A program made the position numbers. Positions 3,001 to 9,000 of a stretch of 21,616 nt of DNA are shown here, piece by piece. This DNA is from a virus (taxonomy: Duplodnaviria > Heunggongvirae > Uroviricota > Caudoviricetes). The stretch lies in the IMG/VR virus record IMGVR_UViG_2541047867_000011, positions 1 to 21,616 of that record, one strand, 5' to 3'. Every line of letters begins with the position of its first letter. Position 1 is the first letter of the stretch.

Positions 3001-6000
3001 CTGGCAAGGCAGCGTGATAGTAGAGTGGCATAGTTTTGTACAGTGGTTCGCCAGGACTTCCGTCAACCTGATTCCATTCTTCAACCCAGGCATCAACAAC
3101 CGCTTTGCTGGTTGATACATGTTCTTCTGAATCTACATTTTGTCCTGATATACAGAACATAACTGCCTCTGCTTCCAGCGATGCCAGAGCAATTCGTGCC
3201 AGTTCCATTTGTTCGCCACGAGTAAGTCCGTTATCAAGCGGATTTTTAATGAATAATTTGATACGTTCTTTGGTTATAGCGTTCATCTCACTCTCCTTTG
3301 ATGCGAATGCCAGTAGCGCGGATTGCATCGATGACTTCAGAAACTTTGTATGCCATTACCGTTTGGTAATCATCGTGAAAATCTGTTCGATGAAGCATGC
3401 TGCTACGTTCCGGGAGCGATATTTCCCGAGCATCCAGTTCCTTAACGCGCTCCTCCAGTTCGTAGACCCTGCATTGTTCTCTATCATCAATCAGATATAA
3501 CCCAAGACATTCGCTTTCTACCCAACCGCCAAAATCATGATCGTAACGCTCACATGAAAACTCACCGTCACCGTCCTTTGTTGGAATGGTGTAACTATCT
3601 AATGGGCCACCATATGTCGGCACATTTCCCAATGTTGGATGCTCAATCCACATGAAAAATGCACGTCCGGTTATTGGGCAAATATCTGGCCGCCATTGGT
3701 TACGAACAGCCTTGGTTTCGGATAATTCTTCAGCGTGTTGTTTTACTTCCTCAAGCTCAACTCTCAGCTTCCCAACCGTAAGAGCAATATCCTCGTTCTT
3801 CTGGTCGCGGCGTTTGATGTATTGCTGGTTTCTTTCCAGCTCATCCAGCAGCGCCAAGACGGTAGCCGGATTGGCTGCAGCGATGAATTCAGCATTGGCC
3901 TGCTGTTCCATTTGGAAATCTTCATCGAAACCGCTTTCAGGATGCGCTCCTTCAATTCTGCAAATGGGAATATATCCAGCAGCCTCGCGATGAATTAGCG
4001 CATCATCACCATCAAATCGGCCCGATCCATATTCGAGCGACCACTCACCACACGTTGCTTTCTCTGCCTTTTCACGCAGTGCCTGATAGTCAATCTTGCT
4101 CACTGGTTGCCTCCTTTGCCGGGATTTCTAACTTTTGAGTGGTTGTATCAAATTCAAACAACTTAACCACGTCATCAAACAGGACATAATCACCATCAGG
4201 ATCTTCAGTCATATCTGCGCCACAATCCTGACCGCACGAGTCGCAACCATCCATATCAAGCTCGTATCGCTTCAGGTTTGCGATATTTGATAAATTCAGC
4301 GCCAGTACAGCCAGGTCATAAACCTCTTCGGCAGTGACATCGCTGTTCAGTCCCATTTCATGGCGATATATGATTTTTTCTACTCGTTGTTTTGTGATCG
4401 TCATTTTTCTCTTCACTCCGATATACAAGGATTACCACACCCCCTCTGCTGATTGCGCGAGCTGGATCCCCTGGTTCCATGCCGTCAATTCCGAAGGCTT
4501 CGGAAAACGCATTCATTGCCTTCTGGCGTTCATCCTGCTTACGGCGTTTATTCCATTTTTTCAGGAACAACAGCGACAGCCACCGTCCGCTGCAGAACAC
4601 GATGTAAAAATAACCAAGGAGCGCCAGGCCGACATTCAGGGCCGTTTCTATGGTTAGTTGTGAGTCAGTTGCCATTTCTTACCTGTTTAAGTAACTGGTT
4701 GAACATAACACTTAGGGGATTGCTGTATCCAAACGGCAGATTGTTTACGCAGTACAGAATCATTTTGTTTTTTTCTCCAGTTCGTACTATTAACCCATTC
4801 CACAATAACCGTGATAATTCATTACTGATAGAAGTTGCGCTTCTTCCAAGTGCGAGGGATATATCTTCTCTACTGCAATCTGGATTTTCCTGGATATACT
4901 CGATAACGGTCATGTGGTCCCTTTTACTTAATATCTGTTTCGGATTGCATGCCATGAGTATTCATTTCGTTAATAATTTCATCCAGAAGGATTTCAAGCC
5001 CTTCTCGACCCATATCTGAAAGAATGAAACCTTTATCAGGGGAAGTAGTGAGCATTTTCTGATAAAGAAACAGCGCTCTTCCCATTCCTTCAGCTTCGCC
5101 GTATTTTTGAATTAAATTCCATTCAATATACTGTTGTAAGGCAAATCGAATGGGGCCGGGATATATAGTCATAAACCCATACATCCCGTTATATACCACG
5201 GCGTGTTCAGTTGTTCCGTGTTCATTCAGGATATCAATTGTGCCGTTCTTGTCTTCTTCTTCGTTGATGAATGTCGTCACATACAACCATCGCCACTGAG
5301 CAACCTTCATCTCAACCGGAAGTTTACCCAGTAATCCTGCTTCGTCGGCTTGCGCCAGACACTGAAGGATACGTAAACCTCGCACATTAGGAGTATCGAA
5401 TTCTCCGGCATCCAGACGACGTATGGCGTCGTGATAATCAATCGTCATACTGCCAGTTCGTATACCATTGGCTGTTGCTTCAGCCTGGAATTCATCGTAT
5501 TGCATGATATTTATTCCTCATCTTCATCTTCATCTGCTGGTGCAATAACGTCATATCCTGCCTTTTCTGCAATAAACAGGAATGTTGAAAGAGTTCCTGC
5601 AAGTTCATCGTCATGAACATGGCGAATGAATATTACTTTCCCGTTTTTGATGGTCAGCAATACTCTGGTTTGTTCGTGTTCTGCTGTTTTCTGATGCATT
5701 ATTATCTCCCGTATGCTTTACGCAGAAATAAGCAGGCAATATGCATGTAATTTTCACCGTATTGTGCAATAAGGCAGGCGGTCTTGTGTGATGCCATATT
5801 CTTTATAAAAGTCACAATAAAGCCTCCTGTGGATTAAGGTTGTAACAATCCCCGGCGATAAAACCGCAATAAACGTTCAGGGCATATTTGTTGTTATTGC
5901 GCTAATTCTTTTTCGGCAGCAGCTTTTGTATACTCACATGCAAAACTCAGAATTTCGCTGCCGAGTGTTTTCGTTTCGTGATTACTGGACATATGTAATA

Positions 6001-9000
6001 CCTGTGTTGCATGCAATAAATGATAAACATTTACCGCAAATGAATCAGGCTCCAGACAAATGCCTTCGTAATTATCTTGCTGTGAGGTTGTTTCTGTCAT
6101 TGCTCCTGAAGTGCATGCGAGCCTGTTTTTGACAATTCTCTTTTCTCTAATCACTATATCGGCAACATCTATTGCCTTTACAACCTCCGGGAGAAGTTCC
6201 GGCTTTGTATAATCAAAGTCATCAACATGGAGAACAGTTATGTTTTCGAACTTTTTCATGGCTTCCTCAGCTGACTTATATGTTCTGCTATATAGCGAGT
6301 CTCAGAAGTGTTTTCATATTGAGACTGTTTCCGCAATGATTGATAAAAATGTTCGCATGTACCTTGAAGGGCGAAGCGGCGATTATGTCACCATTGGTAT
6401 TGGTTCTTCCGCAGAAGAGCTTCGCGAGATAAGGGGCAAACTTGTTGAGATGCGTCATGGTGTTGCTGCTCCTCACTTTTTGGTTGCTCCGGAGGAGTAA
6501 CCTCACCAGTTAACAGCCACATCGGATCGCAGCCAAGAATATTTGCCAGTGGGATAAGCATACTGATAGTTGGTTCATACTCTCCGCTCTCCCACTGGAT
6601 GATAATTTCTTCATCGAGATCGAGCAGCCTGGCGAGTTCGGCGGTTGTTAAGCCGCAGGCTTCGCGTTGGGTGCGAAGACGGTTGTTGATTGCAGAATTT
6701 TTGTTCTGTAAAAGCATTGCTGACGATAGCTTTCTGGATATGCTATTTGTCATATCCCATGCCAGTCCTGCGCATGACTCTATATCGCTAGAGAGCGTAG
6801 CATCAGGTGTTGCTTTTGCTATTAGTGTAATGAGGCTGCCGAGGTTTTTCAGTTCTTCGAGACAGTCAAGAGTTGTAGCTTTATTGATCATGAGATGATA
6901 CCTCAGTTACGAACTTTGTTTTATGGTAACTAAGGTATCAAGGCGTGGCAAGTGATTTTTGATACTTTGGTTTCTTTTTGTGTTTTGTGTCTGGTCAGAA
7001 AATATCCCACCTGGCATCAACCACAACACCTACTATTTCGCAATCATTGTCCATTTCTATGATTGGATATTGTGGATTAAGGGGCTTTAGAAACGCCTTT
7101 CCCATGTCAGAAATATATTTTTTGAATGTTGCTTCATTGGTAGATTTTTTTCTGGCGATGACGTAACACCCTGAAAAAACTTCTTTATCTGGGTTGACAA
7201 GGATCGACATTCCTTCAGGAAATGTTATTCCTACGGGCGAAGTCATTGAGTCTCCGTGCACTTCCAGCCAGAACCCCCTCTCACCAGCGTATTTTACAGA
7301 ATGCCTCCAATTATCCTGATCATACATGTTGTAGTCATCACCAGAAGTTGCGAATAATCCTGCCTGAACCCAGTTAATTACAGGGTAAGAGTGTGCTGTG
7401 TCTCTCTGTGGGCAGCTCTTAACATTATTTTCCCAATGCTTATCTTTTTCATCTCCGTTCTGAAGCCACTGCGGTGAACACCGCAGTGCAGCTGCAACTT
7501 TAAAAAGGGTGTCACCGTTGAAACTTTTTGTAAGGCCTTGCTCGGCTTTACTTATTGCAACTCTGGTGACCCCAGCTTTTTTAGCCAACGCATCTTGTGT
7601 TAACCCAGCTTTTTGCCGTGCGTTGATGAGACGTTCACCTAAAGACTTCATTTTTCTTCTCCTCTCATGGCTGTTGATACTAAAGTAACAGAATTTCTTG
7701 ATACTTTGGGTTCCTGTGGTTAACATCGTTGGATAACAAAGTATCTGGTGTGAGACTAAAGAATGACCCTTTATGAAATATTAAAAATTCAATTTAAAAC
7801 CAATGCCGCTATTGGTCGCAGGTTCCCAAAGAAAGGAAGGCCTCGTGGCAGTCAAGGTGTTGGAAAGTGGAAAACGCGAGGTGTTCCGGAGGATGTTGCC
7901 ATTCTTTGTCATCTGGATCCGAGCATTCCATATACACACCCAAGTCTAGCGAATACAGAAGATGACAAGCCCACAGGAGACCAACAATGAACACCGCAAT
8001 TTTTAACGGCAAAGCATCCATGACCAGCGTTGAGATCGCAGAGCTGGTGGGAAGCCGACCAGATAGTGTTAAGAGAACTATTGAAACACTGGCTAAAAAG
8101 GGAATCATCCAATTTCCACAGACTGTGGAAATTGAGAATAAACAATCACTTGGGCCTCGCCGATTTTCTAGCGCGTATGTATTCGAAGGTGAACGAGGTA
8201 AGCGCGACAGCATCATTGTCGTCGCACAGCTCTGTCCTGAATTCACAGCTCGCCTGGTAGATCGCTGGCGCGAACTGGAAGAACAGATCCGTAAGCCAAT
8301 GAGCGAAATCGAAATGGTTGCCGCGATGGCTCTTGAAGCCGTTCGCCAACAGAAACGGATCACTCAGGTGGAAGAAAAAGTCAGCCACGTTGCTGAAACA
8401 GTCGAGCAAATTAAAAAGGGCACTATTCGTGAGGGCTATGCCGGATATCGCCAACTGAAAGCAAAAACCGGTTTGTCAGATGATAAATGCCGCAATCTGG
8501 TGAACGCCTATCAAATTCCTACAGACACACATGAGTTCATGACGCCAGCGTCTTTTTTATCGTCCGCATTTGCTCACATCCAGATTATGGTGGGCTGGGC
8601 GGGGGCACCGAAAGGCTCGCCGGTCTCCGTTGACGCCGGTACTGCGAACCCTGTTCAGTCTGCCACCAGTGAGTTTCGCAGCTCCGGTGGTGGAAGTTTT
8701 CCACAGTCAACGGAGGCTGCCATCATGGCTACGATCCCAACCCTCACTCAACCTGAAATTGCCATCGTTGATGGTCAGGCTGTTACTTCATCCCTGGCTG
8801 TTGCCAACTTCTTCTCCAAGCGTCATGACGATGTACTGAAAAAGATCCGCACGCTTGAATGCTCCGCATCATTCACTGCCCGCAATTTTTCGGTGAGTGA
8901 TTACACCGATTGCACAGGCCGCAAACTACCTTGCTATCAAATCACCCGTGATGGCTTCGCGTTCCTTGCTATGGGCTTTACTGGCAAACGTGCAGCCCGG

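Follow-up and report, generated by a model that had tools for sequence, protein, structure and literature searches.

The block of small minus-strand genes at positions 4358-6259 of IMG/VR record IMGVR_UViG_2541047867_000011, of which the 21,616 nucleotides (nt) analyzed are referred to here as the window, appears with good probability to belong to a phiP27-like lambdoid prophage at yecE and to make up genes 2-7 of its leftward (pL) operon. We designate the open reading frames (ORFs) of the block A to F in the order of their positions, and the regulator gene that lies between F and the repressor gene cI is designated G. Comparison with related phages indicates that the block is composed of two units, a conserved immunity-proximal cassette, F-E-D-C, and a swappable pair, B-A. 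Within the cassette E, an ORF of 37 amino acids (aa), is a real gene under selection and a member of an unnamed micro-protein family of enterobacterial prophages situated just downstream of the repressor. A first-pass annotation of this DNA, which treated the block as a single unit, had listed ORFs of 105, 82, 193, 62 and 121 aa together with a 37-aa ORF defined by AGGAGG and a GTG start in a 194-nt gap, and re-reading of the sequence agreed with every one of these (the gap, 5700-5893, separates the stop of F from the start of D). Its description of the 37-aa ORF as unannotated was correct for the one RefSeq chromosome annotated by the Prokaryotic Genome Annotation Pipeline (PGAP) that we inspected and for phiP27, but the ORF is called as a coding sequence in PhiR49_2 and in Stx1 phages, and its exact sequence is present in public databases as a 'hypothetical protein' on at least 1000 contigs.

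The designation of E as a gene is based on its low ratio of nonsynonymous to synonymous substitution rates (dN/dS), on the presence of intact ORFs at many loci and on the regularity of its genomic context. Both the frame and the length of E were kept in all seven aligned loci at nucleotide identities down to 77%, with substitutions falling mostly at third codon positions, and dN/dS was 0.06-0.17, reaching about 0.2 in pairs of the window with Stx phages. The copy in PhiR49_2 is identical to that of the window. Eight copies from other records were aligned, of which those of PhiR49_2 and the near-identical E. coli chromosome start with GTG, as in the window, and the remaining six with ATG; the Shine-Dalgarno sequence in related phages is AGGAGG or AGGAGA, with a single exception (TGGAGG). 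More distant copies of 35-38 aa, which are 51-67% identical, were identified by tblastn in the early-left regions of several phages, including Fels-1 (where E is unannotated), Cronobacter ENT39118, SaltyDalty, AsXd-1 and a Klebsiella phage.

A degenerate DNA pattern was then used for searches of IMG/VR and GTDB. At least 120 loci were matched in IMG/VR, and among the matches listed 117 of 120 were intact ORFs of 35-38 aa representing at least 58 distinct E sequences, although the pattern itself forced the residues MTFI and KAYG. As a control, the pattern was applied to 596 Gb of species-representative genomes (GTDB): E-like ORFs were encoded only in Enterobacterales matches, with the exception of two tiny contigs that are probably contaminants, and about 50 matches in other phyla encoded no E-like ORF. 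The context of E was highly regular among the IMG/VR matches listed. Of 94 loci, 85 had a full-length S24 repressor gene on the same strand no more than 2 kb upstream, and between the end of this gene and the start of E there were 697-1266 nt. In 99 of 113 loci the ORF after E began 2-3 nt past its stop. A gene for a C/L06 or phrog_1737 protein followed in 93 of 94 loci, at a distance of no more than 2.6 kb, and 84 of the 94 had a downstream gene for a D/L07 or phrog_8959 protein. The family can be defined as an ORF of 35-38 aa with the pattern MTFI[KIV]...G...L[RK]KAYG, on the same strand as an S24 repressor gene and 0.7-1.3 kb past it, and followed at 2-3 nt from its stop by the start of another gene; the E of the window agrees with this definition at every point (its pattern is MTFIK...LRKAYGR). 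A 90%-identity protein cluster that holds E also lists 119-aa proteins of the phrog_1737 type, which have no similarity to E, and this looks like a clustering artefact.

The opposing explanation is that E is not a gene, and that the gap between F and D is a regulatory spacer (a promoter, terminator, small RNA or leader) with the ORF as its by-product. In its favor are the missing PGAP and phiP27 RefSeq calls, the GTG start in the window and the finding that E matched no family in Pfam, PHROG or NCBIfam. A spacer of this kind is difficult to reconcile with the third-position bias and low dN/dS, with the retention of a 37-codon frame in diverged loci, with the number of distinct intact versions in IMG/VR or with the strong Shine-Dalgarno sequence in most aligned copies. 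In addition, no Rfam family was found in the block and the F-E spacer folded no better than shuffled sequence (z=0.34). As such, we consider it extremely improbable that E is not a gene.

The other ORFs of the block are likewise more than chance ORFs and are real genes. The dN/dS values relative to diverged phage copies were 0.13 for A (versus a Stx1 phage), 0.18 for B, 0.16-0.22 for C and 0.19-0.33 for the C-terminal half of F. Nucleotide changes in the N-terminal half of F were too few among close relatives for a judgement, but in 121-aa homologues with 43-66% identity that half is conserved and its replacements are conservative, and on this basis we take F to be 121 aa rather than the 68 aa given by PGAP in the near-identical E. 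coli chromosome. The same annotation leaves out B, as does that of PhiR49_2, whereas B is annotated in Stx1 phages; the B frame is open to 4955, which gives the 96 aa of the mechanical ORF call. No convincing paralogues of the block proteins were identified elsewhere in the window.

The position of the block within the early-left operon was assigned from the operators that flank cI. The product of this gene, named a 'LexA family transcriptional regulator' by PGAP, matches the Pfam families Peptidase_S24 (E=4e-22) and HTH_3 (E=2e-14). The pattern GATAC-N4-KKWWC had six matches in the 21.6-kb window, three between cI and G and three between cI and the gene in the cro position, so that all lie in the left (OL) or right (OR) operator, where 0.42 would be expected by chance; this expectation has to be read with the knowledge that the pattern was built from the very sites it counts. 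A promoter-like sequence (TTGCCA-17-TACCAT, minus strand, 6951-6923) overlaps the OL sites. Because operators of the OL type are situated between cI and the first leftward gene, pL was placed there and the block was placed in the early-left region, in agreement with the location proposed in the first-pass annotation. G is then predicted to be the first gene of a cI-repressed operon, read from a putative pL, and the block its genes 2-7. From G to int all genes share one orientation, with overlaps or very short gaps, and the order of the left arm is int, xis, small ORFs, Ea22, a 104-aa ORF, A, B, C, D, E, F, G and cI. The absence of exo/bet/gam and recET, which had also been proposed, was upheld: no ORF between int and cI matched Exo, Bet, Gam, RecE/T or Erf in Pfam or PHROG.

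The best DNA match to the region was PhiR49_2, an isolated Escherichia phage, with 99.7% identity across 4072-6678, followed by phiP27 and Stx1/Stx2 phages of the yecE type. A near-identical prophage is present in an E. coli chromosome, where it adjoins yecE/yecN, and at least 80% of 4000-7000 was present in 117 of 5426 complete E. coli genomes. The order G-F-E-D-C beside cI recurs in phiP27 (NC_003356; L10, L08, an unannotated E, L07 and L06), in ASU11 and in all of the Stx phages examined, among them the yecE/ompW-type Stx1/Stx2 phages of E. coli O145:H28, and only some of the phages that share this order also have A and B. It is this comparison that divides F-E-D-C from B-A. F is 95% identical to L08 of phiP27, and the E of phiP27 has 81% amino-acid identity to a Stx-type E query. 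The window differs from phiP27 in having the B-A pair and an Ea22 gene, a longer tail on G and the GTG start of E. In the records of phiP27, ASU11 and the Stx phages the cassette genes have no assigned function.

In its general organization the region resembles the pL accessory genes of lambda (cIII, kil, ea10 and ral) and the 'ea' region of P22, in that small non-structural genes of one orientation lie between immunity and xis/int and are repressed by cI via OL. The likeness to P22-like phages extends to A, which is annotated as EaE in one of them. Unlike lambda, there are no homologues of N, cIII, kil, gam, bet or exo, and the first pL gene encodes a helix-turn-helix (HTH) regulator and not an antiterminator.

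Table 1. Genes and control sites of the early-left block and the adjoining immunity region, in window coordinates.
Feature	Position	Strand	Description
A	4358-4675	-	105 aa; single-pass membrane protein (predicted), DUF4752; variable cargo
B	4665-4913	-	82 aa from the ATG at 4913, after the stop of C; MarR-like winged helix; variable cargo
C	4924-5505	-	193 aa; acidic, alpha/beta; phiP27 L06, phrog_1515; last gene of the conserved cassette
D	5511-5699	-	62 aa; acidic; phiP27 L07, phrog_340
E	5702-5815	-	37 aa; basic micro-protein; GTG start
Shine-Dalgarno sequence of E	5823-5828	-	AGGAGG, 7 nt upstream of the GTG at 5815; read directly
F	5894-6259	-	121 aa; two domains; phiP27 L08, phrog_5451
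Antisense ORF	6240-6500	+	86 aa; phrog_6104; between G and F
G	6388-6891	-	167 aa; HTH_3 regulator, DicA-like; phiP27 L10
OL and inferred pL	6897-6974		Three operator-like sites and a promoter-like sequence
cI	6995-7651	-	LexA/S24-type repressor; 218 aa from the PGAP start, frame open to 7726
OR	7676-7745		Three operator-like sites of the OL type, between cI and the gene in the cro position

Since D starts 2 nt after the stop of E and its Shine-Dalgarno sequence, GGGAGA, sits within the last codons of E, the two proteins would be made together, most likely by co-translation. E is basic (isoelectric point (pI) 9.5) and its hydrophobicity is too low for a membrane span, and D and C are acidic (pI 4.6-4.7, that of D being 4.7). 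D matched phrog_340 (E=3e-21) and, weakly, the C-terminal ends of the anti-repressor PHROGs 4792 and 2379. An exhaustive profile search for relatives of C yielded ~100 representatives, mostly of 190-220 aa and with no informative extra domains; their conserved residues are chiefly glycine and aromatic, with no catalytic-looking motif, and the structure model of C was confident, with no structural relative found. Searches of PDB sequences with A, C, D and F gave no match at E<=0.1, and comparison with NCBIfam yielded no specific match.

F begins with a small beta-alpha-beta-beta domain, which a disordered linker connects to a helical hairpin at the C-terminus (residues ~64-119, with helices at 74-89 and 94-120 in an AlphaFold2 model with a predicted local distance difference test score of 61). 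The hairpin also occurs as a free protein of 66-68 aa (phrog_4587) in Stx phages and SaltyDalty. It is homologous to the N-terminal domain of a second type of G, which is found in PhiR49_2, Stx2 phages and ASU11, as judged by hhalign (98.4%, E=5e-15) and by BLASTP (E=1e-8 to 1e-9), and no HTH was detected in F using Pfam or PHROG. G itself matches Pfam HTH_3 (E=4e-11), with NCBIfam DicA below threshold. Comparison with PhiR49_2 showed 99.7% identity up to a mosaic breakpoint at ~6678, exactly between the N-terminal domain of G and its HTH; since the divergence lies beyond this domain boundary, the N-terminal domain of G travels with the immunity region. G proteins are modular: the central HTH is conserved, the N-terminal domain that precedes it is of at least two unrelated kinds, and what follows it is a short tail in some and a second HTH in others.

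These relationships are reminiscent of SinI/SinR in Bacillus subtilis, in which SinI is a small antagonist homologous to the oligomerization domain of an HTH repressor. In the HTH regulators of the type-2 class encoded next to F in the sister phages, the region homologous to the F hairpin is likewise not the DNA-binding one, and no HTH was detected in F itself. There are also differences from SinI/SinR: the shared domain lies at the N-terminus of G but at the C-terminus of SinR, F and SinI are unrelated in sequence, and the G of the window (type 1) has another N-terminal domain. The simple possibility that F antagonizes its own G is not supported for the window phage, because the N-terminal domain of type-1 G showed no homology to F. 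A decoy role in the SinI/SinR manner would accordingly suit the sister phages better than the phage of the window.

A separate observation concerns the phages with a 35-aa E, such as ENT39118 (locus L010, 2618-3004) and AsXd-1 (locus L012, 2615-3004), together with many IMG/VR loci. In these a gene for a ~128-aa S24 peptidase domain, corresponding to the C-terminal part of a repressor and lacking an HTH, lies directly upstream of E, and its end overlaps the start of E. With this S24-only protein, as with F, a repressor-family domain stands free at the start of pL.

The variable pair can be described by its families. A spans the full Pfam DUF4752 model (PF15944; positions 2-84 of 84; E=7e-37, with a score of 125.8 bits where the cut-off is 27), a family without known function, and also matches phrog_667. 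In other phages, homologues of A go by the names EaE (in a P22-like phage), 'PmgU domain' (in one further record) and DUF4752, and the P1-like phage D6 also has a member of the family. The first-pass annotation had noted one single-pass membrane protein in the block, and this is A, whose single hydrophobic segment (residues 12-30, with a Kyte-Doolittle maximum of 1.67 over 19 residues) precedes the basic cluster KKWNKRRK, an arrangement that fits a predicted N-out/C-in topology. The last 15 codons of A overlap the start of the 104-aa gene (4090-4404) by 47 nt (4358-4404), and the Pfam domain stops short of this overlap. In the prophage of E. coli strain 98198, which is otherwise 99.9% identical, the A gene carries a W41stop mutation (window position 4554; locus L004, 5359-5676), and A is therefore dispensable for maintenance of that prophage. 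B matched phrog_1687, 'MarR family' (E=1e-24), and scored below the Pfam cut-offs for MarR_2 (22.9 bits versus 27) and MarR (14.3 versus 24.6). Since these scores were under threshold and the winged-helix signal was clear, we filed B as a small winged helix-turn-helix (wHTH) protein and not as a MarR protein proper. A search of one literature library found no mention of DUF4752 or PhiR49 and nothing functional on the early-left genes of phiP27.

With regard to function, the first-pass annotation had called all of these proteins unknown and had pointed to host takeover, anti-defense and genes such as kil and gam. The first of these statements goes too far, in that A, B, C, D and F all belong to described Pfam or PHROG families; the homology searches assigned a biochemical function to none of C, D, E and F. 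The second gained no support from the comparisons that we made. If the cassette provided functional analogues of the lambda pL takeover genes, E might be an inhibitor of cell division like Kil (which depends on FtsZ/ZipA) or of FtsH like CIII, and C a Gam/Abc-like nuclease inhibitor in place of Red/Gam, as might be thought from an operon position that is the same as that of lambda cIII and kil, from the size of E, which is near that of Kil (47 aa), from an E alignment suggestive of two helices joined at a conserved glycine, and from the absence of the recombination and Gam genes. Nevertheless, profile comparison of E with Kil gave an hhalign probability of 4.9% over 12 columns and with CIII one of 0.07%, and PHROG and Pfam gave no Kil, CIII or Gam matches, so that we consider such analogues unlikely. 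A second possibility is that the block is an anti-defense island of small proteins that inhibit restriction or abortive-infection systems. Lambdoid early-left accessory regions are known to hold anti-defense genes, for example Ral and Gam, and the exchange of the B-A pair between phages would be in keeping with this. On the other hand, no similarity to named anti-defense proteins was found; PADLOC, which covers defense systems only, returned generic wHTH/HTH matches for B and G and no match for A or for any of C to F, and F-E-D-C keeps a strong synteny and stays with the immunity region, without the host-to-host variation usual for counter-defense cargo. We judge an anti-defense island to be very unlikely.

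The reading that we prefer, that of a phiP27-like prophage with a two-unit block in its pL operon, leads to a proposed mechanism. In the lysogen the S24-type cI would keep the block silent, and transcription would follow induction or infection. E and the acidic D would act together, probably also with C, and F would modulate G-type HTH regulators by heteromerization in the manner of SinI/SinR. B, as a small winged-helix DNA-binding protein, and A, as a DUF4752 (EaE) membrane protein, would form a swappable accessory pair, and any effect of these proteins on the host is likewise inferred.

Several points weigh against this scheme, in addition to the dependence of the two search patterns on the sites and residues that they detect and the lack of an assigned biochemical function for the cassette proteins. 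At most E-family loci the next gene is phrog_8959 and not D, and profile comparison of D with phrog_8959 gave no detectable homology, which means that E is without a single fixed partner. The relationship of C to phrog_1737 is suggestive only, the similarity being weak (BLASTP E=0.004; hhalign 3-4%). The conservation of the C-terminus of E is in part that of the Shine-Dalgarno sequence of the downstream gene. Lastly, the window's own G has a type-1 N-terminal domain, for which hhalign detected no similarity to F (1% probability), and a decoy role for F here would therefore need another partner.

A wider reading can be put forward only tentatively, and we hold it to be more doubtful than probable. 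It is that E, a coupled acidic protein and a protein of the C/phrog_1737 type constitute an unrecognized early module with which the pL operon opens in a large clade of temperate phages of Enterobacterales, and that free copies of repressor domains (F, and the 128-aa S24-only protein of the ENT39118 type) are a recurrent means of feed-forward inactivation of the regulator after induction. Since the phages with such a module have no cIII, kil or Red genes of the lambda type, a step in the lysis-lysogeny decision or in host takeover could fall to it.

Some other features of the window were recorded. The 86-aa antisense ORF between G and F (phrog_6104, E=1e-49), with GGAG 9 nt before its ATG at 6240, overlaps the start of F and 113 nt of the tail of G; its counterpart in ASU11 has 76% amino-acid identity with a plus-frame dN/dS of 0.11, and PGAP does not annotate it in the one RefSeq chromosome that we inspected. 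It is probably an independently transcribed moron. To the right of OR, an Rfam C4 antisense RNA of the P1/P7 immI type (66.5 bits; 8583-8670, plus strand) lies inside a 429-aa ORF (7987-9276) that joins HTH, Ash and Rha domains. Two separate Rha-family genes occupy this region in the closest E. coli prophage, and the 429-aa ORF may represent either a fusion or an over-call that runs across a control RNA for an antirepressor. Three tRNA genes (18541-18787, plus strand) are followed by the small RNA STnc100 (18867-19057, plus strand; 131.8 bits), and the layout of these RNA genes is like that at the stx insertion site of Stx phages.

Taken as a whole, the block is ordinary lambdoid mosaic cargo that is already present in phiP27 and many Stx phages, and it leaves the current picture of these phages unchanged. 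The sole modestly new element is that the E genes are recognized as a family with a fixed synteny. E is a gene under clear purifying selection that has been skipped in the RefSeq (PGAP) annotations inspected, and its family is found on thousands of enterobacterial prophage contigs, including those of Stx phages, where it can be identified by a simple diagnostic signature. Because its position is fixed and it is tightly coupled to the gene that follows, E is a cheap target for induction and toxicity assays, and candidate partners are suggested by the D/phrog_8959 and C/phrog_1737 families with which it is syntenic. The domain relationship between F and G likewise offers a testable idea as to how these phages may tune their second regulator.

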